The notes under the pieces were generated by a model. That model was not told where the DNA came from. It searched no databases and saw only the letters and a program-made list of their open reading frames with translations. From contig JANXCY010000002.1 of the NCBI GenBank assembly GCA_025060135.1, positions 42,623 through 106,622 of the forward strand: DNA of 64,000 nucleotides. The letters are read 5' to 3'. Position numbers and translations under genes: made by a program. The number at the start of each line of letters is the position of its first letter. The first letter of the stretch is position 1. This document shows, piece after piece, positions 1,551 through 58,562 of this stretch. The stretch comes from Anaerolineae bacterium (GTDB lineage Bacteria; Chloroflexota; Anaerolineae; B4-G1; DUEL01).

Positions 1551-2222
1551 ATGGACCCCCGCCGCGCTTTCTTTGAACGCCTGGCCGAAGAGTGGGACGC
1601 TCAGCAGCCGCCGGATCGGGAGGAGCGCCTTCGGGGGCTGCTGGCGCCCTTTCGGGAACACCTTCGGGACGCCCGGGCCGTGCTGGAAATCGGCACCGGC
1701 ACCGGCGCGCTGATTCCTATTATTCGGGAGATCGCCCCGGCTGCGCTCATCGTCTCGGTGGACCTGGCCTATAGTATGCTCTGGCAGGCCCGAAGACGGT
1801 GCCCCAACGCCTGGCTGGCCCAGGCCGACGCGCACCGTCCGCCGTTTCCCGCCGGGGCCTTTGACCGGGTGGTCTGCCACAACGTCTTTCCCCACTTCCG
1901 GGACAAACCGGCCGCGCTGGCCGAACTGGCCCGGGTTCTCCGTCCCGGCGGTCTCCTGCTCATCCTGCACGACCGGAGCCGGGAGGAGGTCAACGCTATC
2001 CACCGGAGCGTGGGCAGTCCCATCGGTAATGACCTGCTGCCGACGGGGGCAGAGTTATCTCTGCTTCTGACGCAAGCGGGATTCCGAAACGCAGAGGTGG
2101 AGGACGGGCTGAACAACTACTGGGCCATTGGGTCCAACGATGAGGACTTCTTTGGCCGGAAGGCCGCTCTTTCGCAGGTTCAAAACCTCACCGAAAGAAC
2201 TCCGCTTTCAAAACTTTCATAG
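1551..2222 (+). CDS. class I SAM-dependent methyltransferase
   Basis: Motif I LEIGTGTGAL and a typical MTase-11/UbiE-like fold signature (VVCHNVFPHF). Confidence 0.7.
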   Translation: MDPRRAFFERLAEEWDAQQPPDREERLRGLLAPFREHLRDARAVLEIGTGTGALIPIIREIAPAALIVSVDLAYSMLWQARRRCPNAWLAQADAHRPPFPAGAFDRVVCHNVFPHFRDKPAALAELARVLRPGGLLLILHDRSREEVNAIHRSVGSPIGNDLLPTGAELSLLLTQAGFRNAEVEDGLNNYWAIGSNDEDFFGRKAALSQVQNLTERTPLSKLS

Positions 2223-2233
2223 GGAGGCACAAA

Positions 2234-3541
2234 ATGAAGAGGTTGACGCTGGTAATCGGCGTTCTTATCCTGATAATTGCCTTTCTCTTTGGGTGTGCAA
2301 GACCCGAGAGACCGGCGGCAGATGTCGGGGTGCCACCCAAAATCATCCTGCGTGTGGGCACCGGCGACAGTGGGGAGGGCCTGAATCCCCATCAGGAGAT
2401 CATCGCCCGCTTTGAGAACGAGAATGCGGATATTCTGGTCCAACTGGAGGCGGTGGCTGGACGGGACTACTACACCCGTCTGCTGACCCAGATTGCGGCG
2501 AAGGATGCGCCGGATATCATGCAGATCGGCGACGACGCTGTCCCGATGTTCGCCAGCAAGGGGGCTCTGCTGCCGCTGGAGGACTACATTAAGGGGACTT
2601 ATCCGCTGGATACCCAGATGTATCTGCCGGGCGTTCTGGACCCAGGCCGCTGGGAAGGCAAACTCTGGCTGCTGCCCAAGGATTTCACCCCCCTGGGCGT
2701 CTATTACAACAAGAAAATCTTTGATCAGTTCGGGGTTGCCTATCCTCAGGACGGCTGGACCTGGACCGATTTGCTTCAGACCGCCCAGGCTCTGACCCGG
2801 GACGTGGACGGCGATGGCAAGACGGACATTTGGGGCATTCAACTGACGGCCAACTGGACCACCGGCTTTGAGTACTGGGTCGCTGCAGCGGGTGGTCGTC
2901 TCATCAGTGAGGACGGTAAGCGGTTCGTTGGCTATATGGATTCGCCGGAGACCATTGCGGCCGTTCAGTTCTTCGCCGACCTGTACAACAAGTACAAAGT
3001 GGCTCCGCCCCCTGCCGATTTCAATCTCTGGGCAGGTGGCAACACCGAGTTTGAGAACGGCAAGGCGGCCATGCGCATCTTTGGGCGCTGGCCTCAGGCC
3101 AGATACAGGGAAAACCCCAACCTGGACCTGGGCTTAGTGGGCGTGCCTGCCGGAAAGGTACGGGCCAACATTCTCTTCTGGAGCGGCTTCGGGATTTTTA
3201 GCGGAAGCAAGCATCCCGAAGCGGCCTGGCGCTTCCTGCGCTTCTATGCTGGCAAAGAAGGCTCCGAGGTGTGGAAAGACTGGGCCATCCCACCGGTCGC
3301 TTCCGTTGCGGAGGCCGCCGGCCTGACCACGGACTCCCTGGAAGGCGTCTGGATCAGAGAACTGAACTTCTTGGCGCCCCGGGCCTACGTGTTTACCCCC
3401 TACTGGAACGAGACGGCGGACCCGGCGCTGCGCAAAGCCCTGGAGACGGTTTTGACTGATCCTCAGGCGGACGTGGCCGCTGTTATGAAAAGGGCTGCAC
3501 AGGAAGCGCAAGCGGCTTTGGATGAGAAACTCGGTCAGTAA
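2234..3541 (+). CDS. sugar ABC transporter substrate-binding lipoprotein (family 1)
   Basis: Lipoprotein signal MKRLTLVIGVLILIIAFLFGC; family-1 SBP-like sequence; followed by two permease genes. Confidence 0.8.
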   Translation: MKRLTLVIGVLILIIAFLFGCARPERPAADVGVPPKIILRVGTGDSGEGLNPHQEIIARFENENADILVQLEAVAGRDYYTRLLTQIAAKDAPDIMQIGDDAVPMFASKGALLPLEDYIKGTYPLDTQMYLPGVLDPGRWEGKLWLLPKDFTPLGVYYNKKIFDQFGVAYPQDGWTWTDLLQTAQALTRDVDGDGKTDIWGIQLTANWTTGFEYWVAAAGGRLISEDGKRFVGYMDSPETIAAVQFFADLYNKYKVAPPPADFNLWAGGNTEFENGKAAMRIFGRWPQARYRENPNLDLGLVGVPAGKVRANILFWSGFGIFSGSKHPEAAWRFLRFYAGKEGSEVWKDWAIPPVASVAEAAGLTTDSLEGVWIRELNFLAPRAYVFTPYWNETADPALRKALETVLTDPQADVAAVMKRAAQEAQAALDEKLGQ

Positions 3542-11776: not shown

Positions 11777-12622
11777 TTATTCTACGTTCTGTCCCCCCGA
11801 AAAGTCGCCGAGGTCGGATGATTCTGTGCCTTCTCCGGTAAACAGCGCGCGGGCGAAAATCAGGAAACCGGTATGGGCCACCATCCGGTCCTCCGGGCGG
11901 AAGCGGGCAGAGACGGCCTTATAGGGTCGCAGCAGAATCTCTTCTACCTCCACCAGTCCCCACTGGGGCGATTCCAACGCTTCCAGCAGGCGCGAGACCT
12001 GATTGGCCGTCGGGAGAAGAGAGCCCAGATATCCGCCATTCGTCAGCGCCGCGTGGGCCTGGGTCAGGTAATCCCAGGGATTGGGCAGGTCCAGGAACAG
12101 CGCGTCCACGCCGCTCTCGTCAAACCCCTCCGCGATATCGCGGGTCTTGAACTCCACCACACCCGCCAGGCCCAGCCGCTCCAGGTTACGGCGAGCCAGT
12201 TGCTGCATCTCCGGGCGAACCTCGTAGGAATACACCCGCCCATCCGGCCGGACGGCATGGGCCAGTACAGCGGTCAGCGCGCCACTGCCGCTTCCTGCTT
12301 CTACCACCCGGCACCCCGGTCCGATGTTCATCTTCAGCAGGATATACCCGGCCTCCTTGGGGTAGACGATCTGGGTGGTCCGCCGCAGGCGGAGAATCAG
12401 GTCGTGGAGCGATGGGCTCAGGAGCAGAAACGGTTGCCCGGTGTGCGAGAGCACCCGGCTCCCCCAGGGACGACCAATGAGGTCATCATGGGCCAAAACC
12501 CCCCGATGGGTGTGGACGCTCTGTCCTGGCTCCAGACGGACAATCTGCCCGCGACGGTCCGGACCCATCAGCAGAGCCAGGTCGCCTGCACGGGCCCATG
12601 CAACGGGTCTCCTGGCCATCAT
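11777..12622 (-). CDS. trmI: tRNA (adenine-N1)-methyltransferase TrmI (GCD14 family)
   Basis: GCD14/TrmI pattern: IVYPKEAGYIL, VVEAGSGSGALT, FLDLPNPW. Confidence 0.8.
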   Translation of the reverse strand: MMARRPVAWARAGDLALLMGPDRRGQIVRLEPGQSVHTHRGVLAHDDLIGRPWGSRVLSHTGQPFLLLSPSLHDLILRLRRTTQIVYPKEAGYILLKMNIGPGCRVVEAGSGSGALTAVLAHAVRPDGRVYSYEVRPEMQQLARRNLERLGLAGVVEFKTRDIAEGFDESGVDALFLDLPNPWDYLTQAHAALTNGGYLGSLLPTANQVSRLLEALESPQWGLVEVEEILLRPYKAVSARFRPEDRMVAHTGFLIFARALFTGEGTESSDLGDFSGGQNVE

Positions 12623-12825
12623 CCTCCGGCAATCAGATGAATGACCCGTACGTCGGCGCGGTCGGGGATCGGACGGGTGGGAAACTCCTCTTCGGGAATC
12701 ACCTCGCCGTTAATGGTAACCACGATCGCGGGGAATGTGTATCGGAACCGGCGGAGAAGTTCTGCCACCGTCAGCCCCGGCTCCCATTCTACCTCATCCC
12801 GATTGTTGACGCAAATGGTTCCCAT
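12619..12825 (-). CDS. ThiS/MoaD-family sulfur-carrier protein (C-terminal GG)
   Basis: 68-aa product MGTICVNNRDEVEW...VRVIHLIAGG; beta-grasp carrier signature ending in Gly-Gly. Start moved to the internal ATG at 12825. Confidence 0.65.
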   Translation of the reverse strand: MGTICVNNRDEVEWEPGLTVAELLRRFRYTFPAIVVTINGEVIPEEEFPTRPIPDRADVRVIHLIAGG

Positions 12826-43036: not shown

Positions 43037-43231
43037 CGGCCTTGCCAAGGATAAGGAGATACCTTCTGATACACCTCCGTATATCCTGAGCCTGGTACCA
43101 GCGGATGCACGCGGGTCGGCTGCTGCATCCGGCGAGCGAAGGGCCGAACGTCCCGAACGGATCCGGAAGCTCGCTCCGGTGGCTGTTCTACGGTTTCCCC
43201 ATGGTTGAACCTTGTAACTGGAGGTGCTTTG

Positions 43232-44317
43232 ATGAATCGCTCCACGACTCTGGCCGAAGAACTGGCCGTCCGGGGTATTACCCGCCGGGAATTCCTGAAG
43301 TTCTGTACCATTATGGCTGGCGTGCTGGCCCTGCCAGTGGACCGGGCGGCCAGAATTGCCCGGGCGCTGGAGACCGTCCGGCGGCCACCGGTCATCTGGT
43401 TGCACTTCCAGGAGTGTACCGGCTGTACGGAGTCCCTCCTGCGGGCCAACCGCCCCACAGTGGCCGAACTGGTGCTGGATGTCCTCTCCCTGAACTACCT
43501 GGAGACCATCATGGCGCCCGCTGGCCACGCGGCGGAGAAATCCCTCCACGATACCATCCAAGAAGGCGGCTATATTACCATCGTGGAGGGCTCCATCCCC
43601 ACCGCCGACGACGGCATTTATTGCTGTATCGCTGGCCGCACCGCGCTGGACATTCTCAAGGAGGTAGCGGCCAACACGGCGGCCATCATCACCGTAGGCG
43701 CCTGCGCCTTCTACGGCGGCTGGCCGTCCACACCCCCCAACCCCACTGGCGCCAAAGGGGTGAAGGACATTATCTCAGGCGTCCCCATCGTCAACCTCTC
43801 GGGCTGTCCCCCCAACGTAGATAACATCACCGCCACGGTGGTCCACTATCTGACCTTCAACGAACTGCCTGCGCTGGACGACCTGGGCCGGCCCCTTTTC
43901 GCCCATGGCCGTCGCATCCATGATAACTGTGAGCGGCGCGGCCACTTTGACGCCGGCGAGTTCGTGGAGGCCTGGGGCGACGAAGGCCATCGTAACGGCT
44001 GGTGCCTTTACAGAATGGGCTGCAAGGGGCCGGTGGCCTTTATGAACTGCCCCTCCATCCGCTGGAACGAGGGGACTTCCTGGCCCGTGGGCGCCGGGCA
44101 TGGATGTATCGCCTGTGGGGCCCCCAACTTCTGGGAGATGCCTGCTTACGAGCCTGTGCCCATCCACGTCCTGACCCCCCCCACTACCTACCCCGAAGTG
44201 GAGCCGGTCAAGGAGATGTCTCCTATTACTGCTGGCGTCATCGGCGCGGCGGTGGGTGTGGCCGCTGGCGTGGCCGGCGCGGTGGCGGTGAGCCAGATCG
44301 CCAAGAAGGAGGAGTAA
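43232..44317 (+). CDS. hyaA: [NiFe]-hydrogenase small subunit, group 1 (Tat signal, C-terminal membrane anchor)
   Basis: Tat motif RREFLKF, HFQECTGCTES proximal-cluster motif, C-terminal TM helix. ATG 43232 preceded by GGAGG. Confidence 0.9.
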   Translation: MNRSTTLAEELAVRGITRREFLKFCTIMAGVLALPVDRAARIARALETVRRPPVIWLHFQECTGCTESLLRANRPTVAELVLDVLSLNYLETIMAPAGHAAEKSLHDTIQEGGYITIVEGSIPTADDGIYCCIAGRTALDILKEVAANTAAIITVGACAFYGGWPSTPPNPTGAKGVKDIISGVPIVNLSGCPPNVDNITATVVHYLTFNELPALDDLGRPLFAHGRRIHDNCERRGHFDAGEFVEAWGDEGHRNGWCLYRMGCKGPVAFMNCPSIRWNEGTSWPVGAGHGCIACGAPNFWEMPAYEPVPIHVLTPPTTYPEVEPVKEMSPITAGVIGAAVGVAAGVAGAVAVSQIAKKEE

Positions 44318-44318
44318 G

Positions 44319-46037
44319 ATGGCACAGAAGATCGTCATTGATCCCATCACCCGCATAGAGGGCCATCTGCGCATTGAGGCCCGGATTGAGGACGGGCGCG
44401 TCGCCGAGGCCTGGGCCTCGGGCACCATGTTTCGGGGGCTGGAAATCATCCTCAAGGGCCGCGACCCCCGCGAGGCCTGGCTGATGGCCCAGCGAATATG
44501 AGGGGTCTGAACGACGGTGCATGCCGTCGCCTCCGTGCGAGGCGTAGAAGACGCTCTGGGCATTCCGATTCCGGATAACGCGCGGATTATCCGCAATCTC
44601 ATTGCGGGCATTCAGTACGTTCAGGACCACGTCATCCACTTCTACCACCTCCATGCGCTGGACTGGGTGGATATTATGGAAGCGTTGAAGGCCGACCCCC
44701 ACAAAACGGCCCAACTGGCGCAATCCATCTCCGACTGGCCCAATTCCAGCCCTGACTATTTCCGCACCCTCAAGGAGAAACTGGATGCCTTCGTCCGCAG
44801 TGGCCAACTGGGCATCTTTGCCAATGGCTACTGGGGCCATCCGGCCTACCGGCTGCCACCGGAGGCGAACCTGCTGGCCGTAGCCCACTACCTGGAGGCG
44901 CTGGACTGGCAGCGAGACGTCATCCGGGCCCACGCCATCCTGGGCGGTAAGAACCCCCATCCCCAGACCTATCTGGTAGGCGGGGTGGCCATCCCGGTGG
45001 ACCCCGATAGCGAGACGGCGCTGAACGCCGATAAACTGGCTTTCCTGAAACGGCTGTTCACGAAGGCCCTGACCTTCGTCCAGCAGGTCTACATCCCCGA
45101 TCTGCTGGCGATCGCCTCGTTTTATAAGGACGAATGGACAGGCATTGGCGAGGGGCTGGGCAACTTCATGGTCTACGGCGACTTCCCGGACCGGGCTGGG
45201 AATTTCCTGTTCCCATCGGGCATCATTCTGAACCGGGACCTGAGCCAGGTCCATCCGGTGGACCAACGGAAGATCGCCGAGTATGTGGCTCACTCCTGGT
45301 ATCAGTATGCGGAGGGCGATCGCGTCGGCAAGCATCCCTGGGAAGGAGAGACGACACCGAACTACACGGGCCCCCAGCCGCCCTACCAGTACCTGAACAC
45401 TGCGGGCAAATACTCGTGGTTAAAGGCGCCCCGGTACGACGATCAGCCTATGGAAGTGGGGCCGCTGGCGCGGGTGCTGGTGGCCTATGCCTCCGGCCAC
45501 AAACGAATAAAGGAACTGGTGGATAGCGTCCTGAAGACGCTGGGCGTGGGGCCCGACGCCCTCTTCTCCACCCTGGGCCGGACCGCGGCGCGTGGGATTG
45601 AGACCCTGGTCGTTGCAGAGAAACTGAACGCGTGGGTAGACGAACTGGCAGAGAACATGGCGCGCGGCGACCTGGCGGTCCACAACGGGGAGAAATGGGA
45701 CCCGGCCACCTGGCCGAAGGAGGCAGAAGGATGGGGGCCGCATGAAGCGCCGCGCGGTGCCCTGAGCCACTGGGTGCGCATCGTGGACGGCAAAATCGCC
45801 AACTATCAGGCGGTGGTCCCCTCTACTTGGAACGGGTCCCCGCGAGACGCGCAGGGGCGGCCTGGCGCCTACGAGGCCTCCCTGGTGGGCACCCCCGTCG
45901 CCGACCCGGAGCGGCCCATAGAAATCCTGCGCACCATCCACTCCTTTGACCCATGTATGGCCTGCGCGATCCACGTTACGGACGCGCGCGGCCAGGAGGT
46001 AACCCGTATCCGCCTGAATGACTGGACCTGCCCGTGA
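44319..46037 (+). CDS. hyaB: [NiFe]-hydrogenase large subunit; single reading frame with two in-frame TGA codons at the N-terminal Cys-x-x-Cys Ni-ligand positions (candidate Sec codons)
   Basis: N-terminus MAQKIVIDPITRIEGHLRIEA... and L1 motif read as AQRI-[TGA]-GV-[TGA]-TTVH (44499-44501, 44508-44510). C-terminal DPCMACAIH motif plus cleavable extension intact. Track ORFs 44319..44501 and 44517..46037 are in the same frame. Confidence 0.8.
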
Positions 46038-46540
46038 AGACACTGGTCCTGGGAGTGGGGAATATTCTTCTGAGCGACGAGGGCGTGGGTGTCCATGTCG
46101 TCCGCCTCCTGCAGGAACGGTACCGGTTCCCGCAGGAGGTGGAAATCCTGGACGGCGGGACGCTGGGGCTGAACTTGCTGCCCTACGTGGAGAACGCGGA
46201 CCGGCTGGTGATCGTGGACGCTGTCCAGATGAACGTCCCCCCAGGGACGCTGGTTCGGCTGGAAGGAGCGGAGGTCCCGGCGGTGCTGGGCCTGAAGTAC
46301 TCCTCCCATCAGATGGGAGTGAGTGAGCTGCTGGCTGTCGCCCGCGTGCTGGGACATTCCCCGGCCGAAGTGATTCTCTTGGGCATCCAGCCGGCCTCGC
46401 TGGAAGTGGGGCTGGACTTATCTCCGACCGTCGCCGCTCAGGTGGAGACCCTCGTCCAGAACGTTCTGGCAGAACTGCAGCGGTGGGGAATCCGCCCCCT
46501 GGACTCCCCAGGAAGCCGTGGTCCTCACCAGGAGGAGTGA
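46034..46540 (+). CDS. hyaD: hydrogenase maturation endopeptidase (HyaD/HybD family)
   Basis: LVLGVGNILLSDEGVGVHVV...LVIVDAV motifs. Confidence 0.85.
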   Translation: MKTLVLGVGNILLSDEGVGVHVVRLLQERYRFPQEVEILDGGTLGLNLLPYVENADRLVIVDAVQMNVPPGTLVRLEGAEVPAVLGLKYSSHQMGVSELLAVARVLGHSPAEVILLGIQPASLEVGLDLSPTVAAQVETLVQNVLAELQRWGIRPLDSPGSRGPHQEE

Positions 46541-46543
46541 ATC

Positions 46544-47446
46544 GTGAACGGAGAAAAGACCGAACGCAGGATGAGCCGTCGGGAGTTTCTAGGCCTCTCC
46601 GCGCTGGGGCTGGGCATCTCCCTGATCGGCGCCCGTCCTGTGGCTGCGGCCCGCGCGGCCTCTCCTGACGAAGTGGCCATTCTCTACGACCCGGTCAAAT
46701 GCGTCGGCTGCAAGGCCTGCCAGATGGCCTGCAAGCGCTGGAACCGACTCCCTGCCGAGAGCACCGACCCGCTGGGCATCTACGAATCCCCCCGGGACCT
46801 CTCGGCTATCACCTGGAACATCATCAAACTACGGCGGACGCAAACCGGCTGGCATTTCTTCAACTACCAGTGCATGCACTGCACCGACGCAGCCTGTGTG
46901 GAAGTCTGCCCGACAGGTGCACTGGCCCATGACCCGCTGGGGTTCGTCGCCCTGAACCGGGATCGGTGCAATGGGTGTGGCTACTGTACTCAGTTCTGCC
47001 CCTACGGCGTCCCCCACCTGCGGGTGGAGAACGCGCTGACCGGAGCGGCGAAGTCGGCCAAGTGCACCTTCTGCCAGGACCGCCTCTGGGAGGGCATCGG
47101 AGGGCCTGCCTGTGCCGAGGTCTGTCCCGTTGGCGCACTGGCCTGGGGCCGGCGCGGGGAACTGCTGGAAAAGGCCTGGGCCCGGGTGGCGGAACTGCAC
47201 GCCCGGGGGATGGATGTCCGCATCTACGGCGAGACCGAGGCGGGAGGACTCCATCGGCTGAGTATCCTGCTGGATGAGCCGGAGCAGTACGGCCTGCCCT
47301 CTGCCCCGAAGACCCCGGCCTTTGCCCGGGCCTGGCAGCGGATCATTCAGCCGCTGGGCAATGTGGCCTTCGGCGCCGCGCTCTTGGGCATCCTGGGCGC
47401 CTTCCTCTTCGTCCGTCGGAAGATCCGCATGGAGGAAGTGAAATGA
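46544..47446 (+). CDS. hydrogenase-associated 4Fe-4S ferredoxin-type subunit (HybA-like) with Tat signal and C-terminal TM anchor
   Basis: SRREFLGLSALGLG Tat signal, four CxxCxxCxxxCP-type cluster motifs, C-terminal hydrophobic helix. Confidence 0.8.
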   Translation: MNGEKTERRMSRREFLGLSALGLGISLIGARPVAAARAASPDEVAILYDPVKCVGCKACQMACKRWNRLPAESTDPLGIYESPRDLSAITWNIIKLRRTQTGWHFFNYQCMHCTDAACVEVCPTGALAHDPLGFVALNRDRCNGCGYCTQFCPYGVPHLRVENALTGAAKSAKCTFCQDRLWEGIGGPACAEVCPVGALAWGRRGELLEKAWARVAELHARGMDVRIYGETEAGGLHRLSILLDEPEQYGLPSAPKTPAFARAWQRIIQPLGNVAFGAALLGILGAFLFVRRKIRMEEVK

Positions 47447-48162
47447 CCGTCCAACTGAAGGGCAAACCGGAGGTCGTAACGATTCAATGGATCCCTAAGT
47501 ACACCTTTATGGAGCGGCTGGGGCACTGGCTGCATACGGCCACTTTCATCCCCCTGGCCATCACTGGGATGATTCTGTACTTCCCGTTTCTGGAGCCCCT
47601 GGCCCAGGGGGAGGCAGGGCTGTTTGTCCGGCTGGTCCATCGGGTTGCGGCGGTCATTTTTGGCCTCCTCCCCATCATCTACTACATTGTGGAGCCTCGC
47701 CGGCTGCTCCTGCACATCCGGGAGTTTCTCCCCAGGAAGGAGGACATCGGCTGGCTGAAGGCCGCCCCTGCCTACTACCTGCTGGGTAAGCACGAAGCCA
47801 TGCCACCCCAGGGCCGTTTCAACGCCGGAGAGAAACTGAACGGACTGATGATGATCATCACCTGGTTCATTTTTGGCATCACCGGGGTGCCGATGTGGTT
47901 CGGCAAGGGGGTGATCCCGCCGGAGATTTTCCGCTGGCTGGTGGTCTTCCACGACCTGGCGATGATCGTCTCGGTCTGCATGCTGATGGTGCACCTCTAT
48001 CTGGCGGTGGCGCACCCGCTGATGTGGGCCGGTCTGGTGAGCATGCGCTTCGGGGTAACGTCGGCGGAGTATGCGGCAGAGCACCACGCGAAATGGTACT
48101 ATGGCCCCAAGCGGGCGATGGAGATATGGGAGGCAAAGAAGCGAGAGGGAGCCCATCATTAG
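47443..48162 (+). CDS. Ni/Fe-hydrogenase b-type cytochrome subunit (HyaC/FdnI-like)
   Basis: Four-TM cytochrome b with conserved His (ERLGHWLHT..., VVFHDLAM..., HLYLAVAHPL). Confidence 0.75.
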   Translation: MTVQLKGKPEVVTIQWIPKYTFMERLGHWLHTATFIPLAITGMILYFPFLEPLAQGEAGLFVRLVHRVAAVIFGLLPIIYYIVEPRRLLLHIREFLPRKEDIGWLKAAPAYYLLGKHEAMPPQGRFNAGEKLNGLMMIITWFIFGITGVPMWFGKGVIPPEIFRWLVVFHDLAMIVSVCMLMVHLYLAVAHPLMWAGLVSMRFGVTSAEYAAEHHAKWYYGPKRAMEIWEAKKREGAHH

Positions 48163-48306
48163 CCATTAACAACCACGAAGGACAGGAAGGGTGGCGCGGG
48201 CTGTTGGCTGGCATCTTGCGGGCCGGGCGGCCTGTGCTCCGTAATCCGGTTCCCTTTGTGTCCTTCATGTACCCTTTTTGTCCTTTGGGGTTGCAAGGAG
48301 GCCGAT

Positions 48307-48693
48307 ATGGCGAAAATTCTGGTGGTAGACGACGACCCGGATTTTGTTAACTTGATGCGGCGGATCCTGCGCGGGAAGGGATACGAAGTGGTTACAGCGT
48401 CCAGCGGGCAACAGGCGCTGCGCGTGATGCGGCAGGAGAAACCGGACCTGGTCTTGCTGGACATTATGATGTCCTACATCCTGGATGGGCTGGACGTGAG
48501 CCGGGAGATGGCGCAGGACCCGGAGTTGAAGGACGTGCCGGTCATCATGGTTACATCGCTGACCGGAGCGCGGGCGCAAGGAGTGGTACCTTCCGGGGAA
48601 TACATCCCGGTGGATGAATGGATTCACAAGCCGATCGACCCGGATCGGCTGCTGGCGCGGATAGAGGAGATGCTGGAAAGGAAAGCGGGATAA
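48307..48693 (+). CDS. single-domain response regulator (CheY-like receiver)
   Basis: KILVVDDDPDF...DLVLLDIMM receiver motifs. ATG 48307 preceded by AGGAGG. Confidence 0.85.
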   Translation: MAKILVVDDDPDFVNLMRRILRGKGYEVVTASSGQQALRVMRQEKPDLVLLDIMMSYILDGLDVSREMAQDPELKDVPVIMVTSLTGARAQGVVPSGEYIPVDEWIHKPIDPDRLLARIEEMLERKAG

Positions 48694-48796
48694 CGGGCTT
48701 GCCGATGCAGATGATGAATGCCGGGCACCGAAGAAGTGCCCGGCTTTTTCTGGGGCATAAGCGGGCCGGCGGCCATCTGGCCGCCGCCCCTTCCCC

Positions 48797-49933
48797 TCAG
48801 GGAGATACCGGCAGCCGGAAGGTGAAACGGCTCCCCCGCCCCAGTTCCGATTCCACGGTGATGCACCCCCCATGCCCCTCCACAATCTGCTTGACCAGTG
48901 GGAGCCCCAGTCCCGTCCCGCGCGGGGCGATTTCTCTGGCCTGAGGGGTGCGGTAGAACTCCTCAAAGACGCGCTCCCGGTCCTGGGGAGCGATGCCGAT
49001 CCCCGTATCCTCCACAGCACCAATGGCCCATCCGTCTCTTTCTTCCAGAATGACCTGCACCTGGCCTCCCGCCGGGGTGTACTTCACCGCGTTGGAGATC
49101 AGGTTGCTCCATACCTGGGCCATCTGGTCGGGGTCGGCCTGCACCACCGGACGGGCCCGCACGTCCACTGCCCAGGTAATCCCTCTGGCCTCTGCTTCCT
49201 TCCGGAAGAGGGGGGCGACCTTTTCCAGGATGTCCGCCAGAGAGACCGGTTCCCGCTTTTCCAGGCCTTTCTCGCTTTTGGCCGCTGCCAGTTTCAGGAG
49301 GTCGTCCACCAGGTCCAGGAGTTCCTGGACCCGCTGGGCGGCCCGTTCCAGCACCTCCTGTTGCTCCTCCGGGGGAATGTACCCTTTGAGGATAGCCAGC
49401 AGGAAACTCTGGAGGGCGTTCAGCGGCGCGCGCAGTTCGTGGGCGACCGTCCACATAAAGGTTGTCTTGAAGCGGTCCAGCCGCTCCAGTTCCGCTTTGG
49501 CCCGGGCCAGTTCCTGGGCCTCCTCTTCTATCTTCTGCAGACGTCGGGCTTCCAGGGTGAGCCGCCGCCGTTCCAGTCCCTGGGCCACCGTCATCCGTAG
49601 GATATCGGCGGTGAAGGGCTTAGAGAGAAAGTCGTAGGCGCCGGACCGAATGGCCTGGACGGCCAGTTCCACGGTGGCGTAGCCGGTGATAACCACACAG
49701 ACCACGTCGGGGTCCTTCTCCAGGATGGGCCTCAGAAGGTCTACCCCGCGCATGTCGGGCAGGACGACGTCCACCAGAACCAGGTCAAAGCGCCCCTCTT
49801 GGACACGGTGGAGCCCCTCCTGTCCGGTGGAAGCCGTCTCCACGATATATCCTTCCGGCTCCAGGGCCCGCCGACAACCGGCGCGAATACCCTCCTCGTC
49901 GTCAATCACCAGGATGCGCGGTGGTTCGTTCAT
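48797..49933 (-). CDS. hybrid receiver-histidine kinase (REC-HisKA-HATPase_c)
   Basis: N-terminal receiver (ILVIDDEEGIR...DLVLVD), H-box VAHELRAPL, G-boxes (GTGLGLPLV). Start likely at MNEPPRIL (49933) rather than ORF start 49996. Confidence 0.8.
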   Translation of the reverse strand: MNEPPRILVIDDEEGIRAGCRRALEPEGYIVETASTGQEGLHRVQEGRFDLVLVDVVLPDMRGVDLLRPILEKDPDVVCVVITGYATVELAVQAIRSGAYDFLSKPFTADILRMTVAQGLERRRLTLEARRLQKIEEEAQELARAKAELERLDRFKTTFMWTVAHELRAPLNALQSFLLAILKGYIPPEEQQEVLERAAQRVQELLDLVDDLLKLAAAKSEKGLEKREPVSLADILEKVAPLFRKEAEARGITWAVDVRARPVVQADPDQMAQVWSNLISNAVKYTPAGGQVQVILEERDGWAIGAVEDTGIGIAPQDRERVFEEFYRTPQAREIAPRGTGLGLPLVKQIVEGHGGCITVESELGRGSRFTFRLPVSP

Positions 49934-50053
49934 GGCGAGCATCTGGCACCGTTGGGTCGCACAGGCCGCCTGGCCTGTCCGATGCAGGGCCCCCATCCCC
50001 GGGCGACCAACGCGCGGCCCGGTGCCCGAAAGGCCGGTACGTAACGTCTGTCC

Positions 50054-52033
50054 TTACCCGATGATCGCTCCCTGAGGCCCAGGAAGGGGACGCCCGGTCT
50101 CTCCGACCCACCGCACGGGTAGCGTGAGGGTGAAGGTTGTCCCCTTCCCGACCTGACTCTGGACGGTGATCTGGCCCCGATGCATTTTGACGATGCCGTA
50201 AACAATGGAGAGGCCCAGGCCGGTGCCCTTCCCCGGTGGCTTGGTGGTGAAGAAGGGAGTGAAGAGTTTATCCATATGCTCCTCCGGAATGCCACAGCCG
50301 GTATCGGTGATAGAGATTTCTACCTGTCCGTTCAGGCAGCGGGTGGCAATCGTGATGGTCCCCGGCCCCTCTATGGCCTCCGCCGCGTTGTTCAGGAGGT
50401 TGACGAAGACCTGCTGTAACTGTGCGGGGTCGGCCTGGATGATACGTACCCGGGGATCGTAGCAACGGATAATCTCCACCCCGGCGAACGTGGGCTGATG
50501 CCGGACACTCTCCACGGACTGATCCAGCAGAGTATGTAGGTCTGTCTCCTGGGCCAGGACCTCCTGTTGACGGGCGAAGTTCAGGAGGTCGGCGACAATC
50601 TTTTTGGCTCGGTTGGCCTCTTTCAGAATCATCTCCAGGTCGCTCCGATGGGGATCATCGGGCGGAAGTTCCCGATGCAGGGCATCGGCGAAGAGCATGA
50701 TGGTGCCCAGGGGGTTATTGAGTTCGTGGGCTACGCCTGCGGCCAGTTGGCCCATAGAGGCCAGTTTCTCTTTGTGGAGCAACTCCTGCTGGGTGCGGCA
50801 AAGGGTTTCGGCCATGCTGTTGAAGGAGCGGCCCAGTGTGGCCAGTTCTCCGTCGCCATAGGTGAGCACCCGGACGGCCATATCGCCCGCTGCCAGTCGG
50901 CGGTGTGCCTCGACCAGTTCGGAGACGGGACGGGTGATCACATAACTAATCGGGACCGCAATGATGCTTGCCAGCAGGATACAGATAATGGCGATCAGCG
51001 CGACCCGCTGGTTGAAGGATTGGACCAGCCCCCGAAATGCGGCCTCGCGCGCCCCGACATACAGGATACCCACCACATTGCCCTGGTGGTCCCATAGCGG
51101 CTCATAGCGGGTGATGTACCATTCCTTGACCACGAAAGCGCGGCCGACGTACTCCCTCTTCTCTTCCAGGACGACCTGACGAACGGCCTGAGAGAGGCGG
51201 GTGCCGATGGCCCGGCGTCCTGCCTCATCCGTTACATTGGTGGAGACTCGCAGGTCGCCCAGGAAGATGGTCACGGTATCGATTCCAGCCACTTCTTTGA
51301 TCCGGTCCACCAGCGTGTAGTCGTTATTGAACATATAGGCGGAAAGAACGGCGCCCATCAGCTGCCCCGAGGGGTCCCGGAGAGGGGATACGCCCACCAG
51401 TGCCAGCCCCGCCGTCCCTTCCCGGGGATCAAAGGGTTCTGGCGCAGCCAGTGGGGTCTCTAGAAGCGGAATAAAGGCCTGGTTGTCCAGCCCCACCTGG
51501 GCCAGAAACTCTTTGGGAATGACCTCAGTGGCGGCTTGGGGCCTGCCCGTTTCCAGCACGGTACGGACGATAGGTAGATCGCCAAGGTGGCCCCGGGTGA
51601 GGGTTGAGGAGAGGCTTCCCTCCGGCCAGAGGACTTTGCCGACTACCAGGTTGCCCTGCGCGTCCAGGACGGCGATGAGGTGAGTACCGCCCAGGGCCAG
51701 AACGATGATTTTGTTGGTGATCTGGCGGTCAATAATCTGGATGGCCTGCGGGTCCCCTCTGGCAGCGGCGGCGAAATTCTCTACCACCCACTGGTCTAAC
51801 ACCAGCCGGTGGCTGATGGCCGCGACTTCGTCCAGTTTCAACTGGTAGAAGGTCTCGGCCAGTTTCATATCCCGTGCCACTCGCTCTGCCTCAGCGGAGG
51901 CCAGGTATTCATGGATGACGTGGGAGACGACCAGCGCGTTCAGCCCCACCGTCAGCGCGGCAATCAGCGCAAAGGAGACCGTCAGGACGATCCGCAGTTG
52001 TCCGCCCAGAAGCCCGAGAAAAAATGCGCGCAT
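50054..52033 (-). CDS. membrane sensor histidine kinase with large extracytoplasmic sensing domain and HAMP
   Basis: Two TM segments bracketing about 280-aa periplasmic region, HAMP, H-box (VAHELNNPL), N/G boxes. Confidence 0.8.
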
Positions 52034-53986: not shown

Positions 53987-55126
53987 TTACCCCAGGGGCA
54001 AGGTGAAGCGAAAGGTGCTCCCCCGACCGACCTCCGATTCTACCTCAATAGTCCCCCCGTACATTTCCACCACCTGCCGGACGATGGGCAAGCCCAGGCC
54101 GGTACCCGTCTCCTGTAACCGCTTCCCCTCTTCGGTCCGGTAGAACTCCTCAAAGATGCGGGGGATTTCATCGGCCGGAATGCCAATGCCGGTATCAGAG
54201 ACCGCGCCAACAGCCAGACCGCGCTCCCGGTCCACCGCCAGCGAAACGGTTACCCGGCCGCCGGAGGGGGTGTAACGGATGGCGTTATCTATCAGATGGA
54301 TCAGGAGGGCCCGGATGTGGTCCGGGTTGGCCCGCACCCGGGGGGAATCCTGCACGTCCACCTCCAGGGCCACCCCCTGCCGCTCCGCGCGCGGCCTCAG
54401 GGCCGCCAGCACGCCCTCCAGTATTTCCTCCAGGGAGATAACCTCCACCCGGCTGAGGCCAATGCCCTCCTTCAGGTGGGCCAGGAGCAGGAGGTCGTCC
54501 AGCGTAGCGAGCAGTTCGCCCGCCCGCGCCTCCGCCCGGGCCAGCACCTCTGGCTGTTCCTCCGGAGGGATGTAGCCTTTCCGGATCCACTGGAGGGTGT
54601 TCTGAAGGACCGCCACGGGCGCCCGAAGGATGTGGACCAGGGTGAGCATAAAGCGGCCTTCCACCGCTTCCAGTTTTTGCAGTTCCGCTTTGGCCCGGGC
54701 CAGTTCACGGGCCTCTTCCTCCAGGGCCCGAAGCCGTTCCGCCTCCCGGCGCAGGGCCCGCCGCTCCAGTTCCCGGTGGACCACCTGAAGGAGCTGGTCG
54801 GCGGAGAAAGGCTTGGCGATAAAGTCGTGGGCACCTTCGCGAATGGCCTGGACGGCCAGTTCCACGGTGGCGTAGCCAGTAATGATGATACAGATCAGGT
54901 CAGGGTCCATCTGGCGGGCCTGGCGGAGGACTTCGATACCACTCATACCGGGCATCATAATGTCCAGGAGGAGGACATCATAGCGGGCTTCCCGGAGTTG
55001 GCGCAGACCCATGGGGCCGTTCTCCGCCACGTCCACGTCAAACCCTTGGGGGACCAGCACCCGTCGGCAGCCTTCCCGGATGCCGACCTCGTCATCCACC
55101 ACCAGAATGCGACAGGGGATACTCAT
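53987..55126 (-). CDS. hybrid receiver-histidine kinase (REC-HisKA-HATPase_c), paralog of 48797-49933
   Basis: Same architecture and collinear similarity to the other hybrid (ILVVDDEVGIREGCRRVL..., ITGYATVELAVQAIR..., EEFYRT...GTGLGLPIV). Start moved to the internal ATG at 55126 so as not to overlap mobA. Confidence 0.8.
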   Translation of the reverse strand: MSIPCRILVVDDEVGIREGCRRVLVPQGFDVDVAENGPMGLRQLREARYDVLLLDIMMPGMSGIEVLRQARQMDPDLICIIITGYATVELAVQAIREGAHDFIAKPFSADQLLQVVHRELERRALRREAERLRALEEEARELARAKAELQKLEAVEGRFMLTLVHILRAPVAVLQNTLQWIRKGYIPPEEQPEVLARAEARAGELLATLDDLLLLAHLKEGIGLSRVEVISLEEILEGVLAALRPRAERQGVALEVDVQDSPRVRANPDHIRALLIHLIDNAIRYTPSGGRVTVSLAVDRERGLAVGAVSDTGIGIPADEIPRIFEEFYRTEEGKRLQETGTGLGLPIVRQVVEMYGGTIEVESEVGRGSTFRFTLPLG

Positions 55127-55737
55127 CGGGCCCGCTCCACTTCCGCCAGCAGGGACTCCCAATCCTGAGGCGTATTCACGTTCCGAAAGGAGCGGAGGCC
55201 CGGGTCCAAGGCCTCTGCCTCCTCCCGCGCGATGTACCGGACCCGGACGTAGGGGAAAAACGAGATAATGCGCTGCTGGCCGGCCCGAATGACCGCTTCC
55301 ATCGCCGGGAGGCAGGTCCGCCGGTAGGCGGCGTGGAGCGTTTCCACCTGCTCGCCTCGCCGGAGTGCGACCACGTCGTATCCCTCTGCCCAGACGACGA
55401 AGGCCCGCAGGAGGGCCGGATTCAGGAAGGGCATGTCGCAGCCAACGGCCAGGATCAGGTCGTGCTGGGCGGCGCGGAGCCCGGCATGCAGACCGCCCAG
55501 CACCCCCACGCCAGGAAAGACGTCAGGCACCACCCGGGTGCCCAGGCCCGCGTATCGGGAGACGTCGCTGGCGACGATCAGGACCTCCTGGCAGAGTTCT
55601 GCCATCCGGTCCAGAACGTGGAGAATCAGCGGACGGCCAGCCAGTTCCAGGAACGCTTTGTCTTTACCCATCCGACGACTGGCCCCACCCGCCAGAACCA
55701 CCCCCGTTACCGGCCAGCGGAACCCCGCCGTATGCAT
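55123..55737 (-). CDS. mobA: molybdenum cofactor guanylyltransferase
   Basis: GVVLAGGASRRMG...DKAFL and LILAVGCDMPFL MobA motifs. Confidence 0.8.
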   Translation of the reverse strand: MHTAGFRWPVTGVVLAGGASRRMGKDKAFLELAGRPLILHVLDRMAELCQEVLIVASDVSRYAGLGTRVVPDVFPGVGVLGGLHAGLRAAQHDLILAVGCDMPFLNPALLRAFVVWAEGYDVVALRRGEQVETLHAAYRRTCLPAMEAVIRAGQQRIISFFPYVRVRYIAREEAEALDPGLRSFRNVNTPQDWESLLAEVERAR

Positions 55738-57512: not shown

Positions 57513-58562
57513 TCATTCCTCCAGGTGGGCCAGGATCTCTGCCACCGGAGGGCGATCAGTGGGGCTCTGGCCCACGTAGGACCAGCGGATGCTCCCGTTC
57601 TTCAGCACGAAGACCGCCGGAGCCGCCAATCCATCCCCCAGAAGGTTGTATACCCCGTACATCTCAGCGACCCGGTGGTCCGGGTCGGCCAGGATCGGGA
57701 AGGGCGCACCAACGGATGTCCGGACTCCTTCCACCGCCTCCAGCGATGCTACTGCCAGCGCGACCACTTCTGCGCCCCGAGCCTGGAATGCTCCATAGTG
57801 ATCTCGCAACTCCACGAGTTGCGTTCGGTCTGGCCCTCAGCCGCACCGCTGGAAAAAGACCAGGACGACCGGCCCTCGGGCCAACCGCTCAGAGAGGGTC
57901 AGCGTGCCCCCTCCGGCCTGCTCCAGTGTGAAGTCCGGGGCCTGGGCCCAGGCCAGCGTGGGGGTAGCCGCCGGGGTGGGGAACCGGAACGAGCCCTCCA
58001 TCTGTTCCCGGTAAATGACCACCCGGACCCGAGACCGTTCCTGAGACAGCCACTCCTGAATGGATGTCCCCTGGGCTTCCAACGCGACCTGGGCTTGCTG
58101 GACTCTCAGGAGCCGGGCAACGGCCCGCTCCAGAGCATCCCGGCCCAATCCGACTTGGGCCAGCGCGGCGGTTATCTGTTCCTCGGAGGCGCCCCATTGC
58201 TGCTTCAGGGCCGCGATCTGCGCCTCTACCGCTTCCCGGGCCGGCTCCGGTTGGGGCGCCGCGCGCAGGACCAACACTTCGTTCACCAGTCGGTCCAGCG
58301 TCTCCTCTGGCCCAGGGGCCGGGACACCTGCCAGTTGGCTCATCGCCCAATCCAGTCGCACTGCCTCCGCCCAGAAGTTCCGCCCAATCGGCTGGTCCTC
58401 CACCACGGCCACCGGTGGGTCAGCGGGAGTGGAGGTGAACACCGGGGGCGGGGAAGCCACTGGCGTCTCCTGACTGAGCACTCCGATGACCAGCCCCACC
58501 AGCAGGAGCGCGATGACCCCCGTGGCCAGTATCCATCGCCAGCGAACACCAGGCGCTTTCAT
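57513..58562 (-). CDS. membrane-anchored thioredoxin-fold redoxin (AhpC/TSA-Bcp/TlpA-like) with N-terminal SurA-N-like domain; one in-frame TGA beside the active-site Cys (candidate selenoprotein)
   Basis: Track ORFs 57837..58562 and 57513..57815 share one frame; junction reads VVLVFFQRCG-[TGA]-GPDRTQLVELRD. Palindrome cgcaactccacgagttgcg (57805-57823) lies 13 nt 3' of the TGA on the mRNA. C-terminal part aligns with Bcp (LRD...G.EVV.L). Confidence 0.6.

Follow-up and report, generated by a model that had tools for sequence, protein, structure and literature searches.

Introduction

A 64,000-nucleotide (nt) stretch of the genome of an Anaerolineae bacterium (NCBI GenBank assembly GCA_025060135.1, contig JANXCY010000002.1, positions 42,623 to 106,622 of the forward strand; the whole stretch is called the window here) carries a gene for the large subunit of a [NiFe] hydrogenase, in which UGA stop codons stand at both cysteine positions of the N-terminal nickel-binding motif. 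Is such a gene damaged, is it read with an altered genetic code, or is UGA recoded within it, and if so, as selenocysteine (Sec) or as cysteine? An earlier note, made from the letters of the sequence, had proposed Sec at both positions. We followed up this proposal by comparison with homologous loci, which are referred to by their numbers (L006 and so on) where they need to be told apart. We are highly confident that UGA recoding of some kind takes place in the large subunit gene. The large subunit is very probably a selenoprotein, in which each of the two sites may hold Sec or Cys. The feature is real and is mis-annotated in public data.

Conservation of the UGA pair at the nickel-ligand codons

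Direct translation of positions 44319-46037 of the forward strand gives one reading frame, as the earlier note had read it, interrupted solely by TGA at 44499-44501 and TGA at 44508-44510. The motif region translates as LMAQRI[stop]GV[stop]TTVHAVASVR, both stops being the Cys positions of the RxCGxC (L1) nickel motif, and all residues of R-I-x-G-V-x-T-T-V-H are kept except the two ligand codons. The note had also described the other conserved blocks and the downstream maturation protease as intact, and this was borne out: RIEGH is present at residues 12-16, and so, towards the C-terminus, are DPCMACAIH and an extension of 20 residues, and DPCMAC is encoded with TGT..TGC, i.e. with Cys at both C-terminal ligands.

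The two codons were read directly in 84 homologous copies, which comprised those from a scan of one genome per species (80 loci), the window and two separately fetched Cys-type metagenome contigs. Copies are labelled UXXU (TGA..TGA), CXXU (TGY..TGA), CXXC (TGY..TGY) or UXXC (TGA..TGY). The homologues alternate between TGA and Cys codons at these sites, with 39 UXXU, 17 CXXU and 28 CXXC copies and no UXXC copy (0/84). The second codon is TGA in 56 copies and the first in 39, and the first TGA is always accompanied by the second. The absence of UXXC suggests either that the changes occurred in the order CXXC to CXXU to UXXU or that there is a functional dependence between both sites.

The identical TGA pair is present at the same two codons in 38 other species-representative genomes, in agreement with the note's view that it lies beyond chance. 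By record title, the UXXU copies belong to Chloroflexota (Anaerolineae, Thermoflexus and others), Nitrospirota (Thermodesulfovibrionales and others), 'Deltaproteobacteria'/Thermodesulfobacteriota, Methylomirabilia and Acidobacteriota, a spread of five phyla, and the assemblies come from many independent projects and assemblers. The further disruptions that the note had named among its refuting conditions are absent, as all 39 UXXU genes are otherwise intact, with at least 57 open codons before the motif, 511-515 after it and no other stop. The N-terminal 60 residues are conserved in frame among the homologues, which reach 88% identity across 100% of the length of the large subunit; relatives at 88% and 87% identity carry TGC..TGT at the ligand codons. 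The conservation across phyla, the alternation with Cys codons in close homologues and the intact gene and operon together indicate that the two TGAs are programmed recoding sites and not damage.

The UXXU genes share a further feature of codon usage. The Ile codon just before the first UGA (44496-44498 in the window) is ATA in 35 of 39 UXXU genes, in none of the 17 CXXU genes and in 3 of the 17 CXXC genes that have Ile there, and ATA is the rarest Ile codon of the window (6% of Ile codons). In public protein sets, the UXXU large subunits are held as 500-506-residue fragments starting just past the second TGA, with database entries that begin at VHA.. or MR.VE.., which indicates that automated gene calling leaves the variant unrecognised. 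The annotations of dozens of metagenome-assembled genomes (MAGs), and the hydrogenase surveys derived from them, carry such fragments lacking two Ni ligands, and are therefore likely to count the clade too low or to misclassify it.

A co-varying SECIS-like hairpin downstream of the UGA pair

The mRNA downstream of the second UGA can form a hairpin resembling a bacterial Sec insertion sequence (SECIS), with a stem of 44529-44533 paired to 44539-44543, extendable to 44528/44544, and a loop CGUGC at 44534-44538, in which the G at 44535 is invariant. The published bacterial SECIS model has a stem of at least 4 base pairs (bp), a distance of 16-37 nt from UGA to loop and a free energy (dG) of -7.5 kcal/mol or lower (PMC13188914). 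The hairpin fits this model, with its 5-nt loop, G at loop position 2 followed by U, stem of 5-6 bp, dG of -9 and a loop that lies 23 nt past the second UGA and 32 nt past the first; as both spacings are within the permitted range, one hairpin is formally compatible with both UGAs.

Covariation was assessed in alignments of 72 nt from the first ligand codon, of 56 Sec-type sequences and of 26 Cys-type genome sequences. Among the Sec types the hairpin is paired in 88.9% of cells, and double-sided changes (AU/UA/GC, GC/CG, CG/UA) occur in four of the five pairs. Neither the observed score nor the percentage paired was matched by any of 500 column shuffles, and slid registers were all far lower. 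The equivalent columns of the Cys types are paired in 56.9% of cells, which is no better than shuffles. The covariation has a cost in the protein, since the pair changes force coupled amino-acid changes at the two flanking codons (Ala GCC/Gly GGC, Ala GCU/Ser AGC, Ser AGC/Ala GCU and Cys UGC/Ala GCA). When each sequence was folded alone, a hairpin at the same site with G in the first two loop positions was found in 39/39 UXXU and 16/17 CXXU copies; the 17th CXXU copy, a divergent paralogue in L030, has a strong hairpin of its own in another register. The mean dG at the site is -9.1 kcal/mol for UXXU, -8.0 for CXXU and -5.1 for Cys types, the structures of the latter being heterogeneous.

Two hairpins after the UGAs had been described in the earlier note, and both are present (Table 1), although only the one discussed above, the second, proved to be conserved and co-varying. 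Outside the window's clade, the upstream hairpin is strong only in some CXXU Anaerolineaceae, which have no first UGA. The mean dG at its site is -4.3 for UXXU, -3.6 for CXXU and -1.2 for CXXC, and in the window's register its pairing is 62% in Sec types vs 61% in Cys types. Because its strength is limited to some clades and its pairing is equal in Sec and Cys types, we treat it as a lineage-specific element of uncertain role. Its position relative to the first UGA is much like that of the E. coli fdhF mini-SECIS. The idea that it is, as a general rule, the dedicated SECIS of the first UGA was rejected, in view of the same pairing percentages and of its strength in CXXU genes that lack this UGA.

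Evolution of the ligand codons

In a neighbour-joining tree of the 84 proteins, the UXXU, CXXU and CXXC types are interleaved as a mosaic, which contains a deep, uniformly UXXU Nitrospirota clade and a CXXU Anaerolineaceae clade. In the window's own clade, two CXXC genes are nested among nine UXXU genes. Every member of the Nitrospirota clade is UXXU though adjacent third-codon positions vary freely, and UGA is thus specifically maintained. One pair of loci bears on how the types interchange. The UXXU gene of L006 (Thermoflexus sp.; 1586-3301) and the CXXC gene of L083 (3901-5616) are 97.1% identical in DNA. Of the 49 positions at which they differ, 42 fall within the first 300 nt, a stretch that includes both ligand codons and the hairpin, and 7 within the other 1416 nt. 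Since the differences are concentrated at the 5' end, the segment with the SECIS and both ligand codons seems to have moved between genes as a unit, which suggests that Sec and Cys versions are swapped as a 5' cassette by recombination. Of the Cys-type relatives, L083 retains the hairpin, and in L084 it is decaying.

Separately, one Nitrospirae contig (L030) holds two paralogous large subunits 4 kb apart (6236 and 10166), of which one is the divergent CXXU form (RFCGV[UGA]TSVH), whose own SECIS stands in another register, and the other is UXXU.

The hydrogenase operon and its surroundings

The large subunit gene is part of a complete hydrogenase operon, which comprises small and large subunit, endopeptidase, FeS protein and cytochrome b (Table 1). 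In a Pfam profile search, PF00374 scored 731 bits on the downstream piece of the large subunit. The nearest solved structure is 3MYR, the membrane-bound hydrogenase of A. vinosum (768 bits), and the next nearest are Salmonella Hyd-5 and E. coli Hyd-1; the scores of the other structure matches are 675 bits for 4C3O, 644 for Hyd-1, about 615 for D. vulgaris MF and 579 for Hyd-2. A full-length PF00374 domain, Group 1 nearest relatives, a small subunit with a twin-arginine translocation (Tat) signal, an endopeptidase and a membrane electron-transfer partner were all found, as is expected of a Group 1 enzyme. The true start of the small subunit is probably the ATG at 43232.

Directly 3' of the operon lies a two-component cluster (48256-52033 and 53987-55162), with a stand-alone response regulator, two hybrid receiver-histidine kinases and a Cache/HAMP sensor kinase. 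These genes may regulate the hydrogenase operon.

Table 1. Positions of the ligand codons, hairpins and genes discussed in the text, numbered from the first letter of the window.
Feature	Position	Strand	Description
First UGA, predicted recoding site	44499..44501	+	First Cys of RxCGxC; terminal Ni ligand; equivalent to C76 of E. coli Hyd-1
Second UGA, predicted recoding site	44508..44510	+	Second Cys of RxCGxC; Ni-Fe bridging ligand; equivalent to C79 of E. coli Hyd-1
Conserved SECIS-like hairpin	44528..44544	+	(C)GCCUC/GAGGC(G), 5-6 bp stem, -9.0 kcal/mol
Upstream hairpin	44512..44529	+	CGACGG(U)-GCAU-(G)CCGUCG, -9.9 kcal/mol; starts 10 nt past first UGA; 2 nt in common with the SECIS-like stem
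[NiFe] hydrogenase large subunit, Group 1 type	44319..46037	+	572 codons, with the two in-frame UGAs read through
Hydrogenase small subunit	43205..44317	+	Tat motif RREFLK, C-terminal membrane anchor; PF01058, PF14720; TIGR00391 435 bits
Maturation endopeptidase, HycI/HyaD family	46034..46540	+	PF01750 127.8 bits, profile positions 1-129 of 130
HybA-like 4Fe-4S electron-transfer subunit	46544..47446	+	PRK10882 HybA E 2.7e-54, under that model's cutoff
Membrane cytochrome b subunit	47443..48162	+	PF01292
Second candidate selenoprotein gene, membrane-anchored AhpC/TSA-redoxin fold	57513..58562	-	In-frame UGA 57837-57839, ...FFQRCG[U]GPDR...
Candidate SECIS hairpin of the redoxin gene	57805..57823	-	Perfect 8-bp stem CGCAACUC/GAGUUGCG, loop GUG

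Evidence for UGA recoding beyond the hydrogenase gene

The window contains a second candidate selenoprotein gene, which encodes a redoxin (Table 1). Its UGA lies within the redox motif. The piece downstream of the UGA matches the AhpC-TSA profile only from position 47, and translation through the UGA yields the complete domain (positions 4-123 of 124, 82.8 bits). The candidate SECIS hairpin, of textbook form, begins 13 nt past the UGA, with 21 nt from UGA to loop. The database homologues all end at the UGA (57/57) and are annotated as hypothetical proteins of roughly 243 amino acids, with a separate 'AhpC-TSA' fragment of 83-100 amino acids called downstream; the UGA, the downstream frame and the hairpin are kept in four relatives (L087, L088, L090 and L092). 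We regard this gene as supporting evidence that the organism recodes UGA. A scan of the window for more in-frame TGA genes left the redoxin as the one real candidate, the others being rejected as adjacent genes or off-frame overlaps.

Among the homologous loci, L092 and L093 (4775-6816, forward strand) carry a typical Sec-type formate dehydrogenase alpha subunit, FdhA (..IEHQARI[UGA]HSPTV..), which gene callers split at the UGA and which is followed by a strong hairpin; it adjoins the redoxin homologue. Short 'Molybdop_Fe4S4' fragments stand upstream of the Cys-type hydrogenase in L084, L085 and L086, and may be similar UGA splits or remnants.

The decoding machinery was sought in the window and at the homologous loci. 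Over the whole window, Rfam at gathering threshold returned only a tRNA-Met, and a Pfam scan assigned the window's open reading frames of SelA, SelB and SelD size to unrelated families only. When E. coli SelA, SelB and SelD were searched with tblastn against the window and all loci, the sole accepted match was the selB gene of L026, a UXXU Chloroflexota MAG, which lies 8 kb from the hydrogenase (TIGR00475 331 bits, cutoff 242). Weak SelD matches in L031 and L050, of partial coverage and 25-27% identity, are probably the unrelated paralogue HypE. A search with the SelB of L026 indicated that SelB is common in MAGs of Anaerolineae and Caldilineae; none of the proteins that it returned was tied to MAGs of the closest UXXU relatives. 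Anaerolineales single-cell genomes have been reported to use Sec (PMC4959059).

Proposed model and alternative explanations

We propose that the gene encodes the functional large subunit of a Group 1, periplasmic, membrane-anchored uptake hydrogenase, in which both UGAs are read as Sec via SelB and SECIS; on the present evidence we think this probable, if with some reserve. SelB-GTP carrying Sec-tRNASec would bind the mRNA hairpin at 44528-44544, and would supply the ribosome with Sec at UGA 44499 and, three codons later, again at UGA 44508. In the mature enzyme, the two ligands of the N-terminal motif, one a terminal Ni ligand and the other a Ni-Fe bridging ligand, would be selenium, and the two C-terminal ligands would stay sulfur. 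The conserved UGA recoding sites and the conserved, correctly spaced and co-varying hairpin are what the comparative sequence data show; SelB as the reader, the use of one hairpin for both UGAs and the presence of Sec at both positions are what we infer from them. In E. coli Hyd-1, the engineered single substitutions C76U and C79U leave 3% and 13% of native activity (PMC8020662), and selenium at either position is therefore chemically tolerated. We lean, by a narrow measure, towards the wider interpretation that the locus represents a natural double-selenium active site with selenium at a terminal and a bridging ligand, in which a single SECIS decodes two UGAs six nt apart, and that this is the predominant form of a cross-phylum clade of Group 1 uptake hydrogenases, truncated in current annotation, whose Sec-type and Cys-type 5' cassettes recombine between near-identical genes.

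Several observations weigh against this proposal. Searches at the level of RNA, Pfam profiles and tblastn recovered no selA, selB, selD or tRNASec within the 64-kb window. The fold energy of 44493-44580 is unremarkable by itself (z = -0.22), so the case for the structure rests on covariation and not on stability. No Rfam family matches the hairpin; over 44440-44640, permissive E-values gave chance matches only, none of them to a SECIS family. We also know of no experimental demonstration that one SECIS decodes two UGAs 6 nt apart. Moreover, a documented alternative exists for the amino acid itself: one or both UGAs could be read, in a SelB/SECIS-dependent manner, as Cys by a tRNASec-like tRNACys (selC*/tRNA-ReC), and the product would then be an ordinary [NiFe] or a mono-selenium enzyme, with the UGAs as an evolutionary intermediate or a regulatory device. 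Such selC* tRNACys are established, with U73 and a GCA or UCA anticodon, inserting Cys at UGA with the use of SelB and SECIS, and have been reported in Thermodesulfovibrio, Nitrospirae and deltaproteobacteria (PMC5389517), lineages from which many of the present UXXU genes come. In addition, among genomes that have UXXU-type Group 4 hydrogenases, about 56% were found to carry tRNA-ReC, vs about 2% of other Sec-type genomes (Takano et al., PMC13582414). We found a tRNA of this type in L020, a Thermodesulfovibrionales MAG, at 12562-12657 of the forward strand (96 nt; Rfam tRNA-Sec RF01852, 59.9 bits; anticodon GCA; discriminator U), about 240 nt past the cytochrome b gene of a homologous hydrogenase operon. 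However, the hydrogenase gene beside it is of the CXXC type, so it is tied to UGA decoding by neighbourhood only, and neither the window nor any of the seven UXXU loci closest to it contains a selC*-type tRNA. In the literature searched, selC*/tRNA-ReC has not been reported from Chloroflexota; the survey of 2017 does not list it there (PMC5389517), and the Group 4 study placed tRNA-ReC in genomes of Armatimonadota, Desulfobacterota and JAPLJL01 (PMC13582414). If UGA were read as Cys, a change of TGA to TGY would be silent and better translated, yet both TGAs are kept throughout the deep Nitrospirota clade. Reading as Cys at one or both sites is the main rival to the Sec model and a serious one, if the less probable of the two. 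What stands of the earlier note's Sec proposal is the programmed recoding with its co-varying SECIS-like hairpin, and the identity of the residue at both sites is the part that this tRNA calls into question.

The readings in which UGA has no special decoding fare much worse. That gene callers split or truncate the large subunit is what a pseudogene, or a pair of sequencing or assembly errors, would also produce, but the same two TGAs recur in 39 independent assemblies with no other lesion in any, and the 60 N-terminal codons in frame, the co-varying hairpin and the intact operon are not those of a decaying gene; this reading is very improbable and, judged by the comparison, effectively refuted. 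An altered genetic code with UGA as a sense codon (codes 4 or 25) could appeal to the in-frame TGAs themselves and to nothing else. Of the 51 genes predicted in the window, 22 end in TGA, among them the hydrogenase gene, and no other ordinary stop is as frequent, which excludes a reassigned code; genes with full-length Pfam matches end at it, the GC content of the window is about 63%, and in-frame TGA is confined to two genes of the 64 kb, where it stands at redox or metal-binding Cys positions followed by SECIS-like hairpins. We consider this reading extremely improbable.

Implications

The C-terminal Sec at a terminal ligand is the only Sec studied in natural hydrogenases, and its effects on O2 tolerance and H2 production underlie present ideas on the role of selenium in these enzymes. 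If our proposal is true, a widespread natural enzyme would carry selenium at the other terminal and at a bridging ligand, as an evolution-tested counterpart to the poorly active C76U and C79U variants, and the position dependence of selenium would become directly testable. The UXXU gene would also be a natural test case for the handling of two UGAs three codons apart by SelB and one SECIS.

Comparison with known systems

The classical [NiFeSe] hydrogenases (Group 1a of Desulfomicrobium baculatum and D. vulgaris HysAB; Group 3 Fru/Vhu of Methanococcus) likewise have a [NiFe]-family large subunit in which a Ni-ligating Cys position is encoded by UGA, read there as Sec, and for them too Cys-type paralogues or orthologues exist. 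In contrast to the window's enzyme, where the UGAs are N-terminal and DPCMAC has Cys, they have a single Sec at the first Cys of the C-terminal DPCxxC. No C-terminal UGA was found, as 39 of 39 UXXU genes are without a further stop. The similarity of the large subunit to HysA is partial (about 330 bits, residues 177-564), and it scores under the cutoffs of the NCBIfam NiFeSe models (NF033181, 556.7 vs 600; NF045518 HysA, 404 vs 780). These sequence comparisons indicate that the window's enzyme is not a member of the classical [NiFeSe] family.

To our knowledge, no double N-terminal Sec variant, natural or engineered, has been characterised. The engineered E. coli Hyd-1 variants C76U and C79U concern the same ligand positions in the same Group 1, but are single substitutions made with an EF-Tu/UAG system and have poor O2 tolerance, whereas the window's gene has two natural UGAs (Evans et al. 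2021, PMC8020662). Other bacterial UxxU selenoproteins, i.e. a Prx-like oxidoreductase, a putative mercuric reductase and the FmdB family (PMC13188914), resemble the present gene in having two UGAs 6 nt apart in a CxxC-type motif with presumably one downstream SECIS; they differ in that the motif is thiol-redox or metal-binding and not a hydrogenase active site, and they are predictions too.

The closest parallel is found in Group 4 [NiFe] hydrogenases, for which N-terminal CXXU, UXXC and UXXU types were reported in silico in September 2026 (Takano et al., PMC13582414). These variants share with the window's gene UGA at one or both Cys of the N-terminal CXXC, a mosaic distribution of Sec and Cys types and, further downstream, a stem-loop whose apical loop has a conserved G within its first two positions; the caveat of tRNA-ReC and the question of one SECIS for two close UGAs are common to both. 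The Group 4 enzymes are energy-converting multisubunit complexes, whereas the window's enzyme is of Group 1 by architecture and relatives, with a score of only 26 bits for a NuoD-like model. The prevalence is also different: the Sec types of Group 4 are rare (47 sequences, about 0.2%; PMC13582414), whereas here UXXU outnumbers each of the other types among the nearest 84 copies and UXXC is absent. According to the same study, which notes CXXU in two Group 1 sequences, the CXXU sequences known from Groups 1 and 3 numbered only three, and UXXC and UXXU were previously unrecognised (PMC13582414). The earlier note's description of an undescribed variant therefore has to be narrowed: N-terminal UXXU is known in silico for Group 4, and for Group 1 we did not find it described in the literature searched, nor is such a hydrogenase listed in the selenoproteome catalogues of 2022 and 2026. 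The precedent for the concept is very recent. New here are the hydrogenase group concerned, how prevalent the variant is in its clade, the evidence from covariation and the cassette-like mode of exchange.

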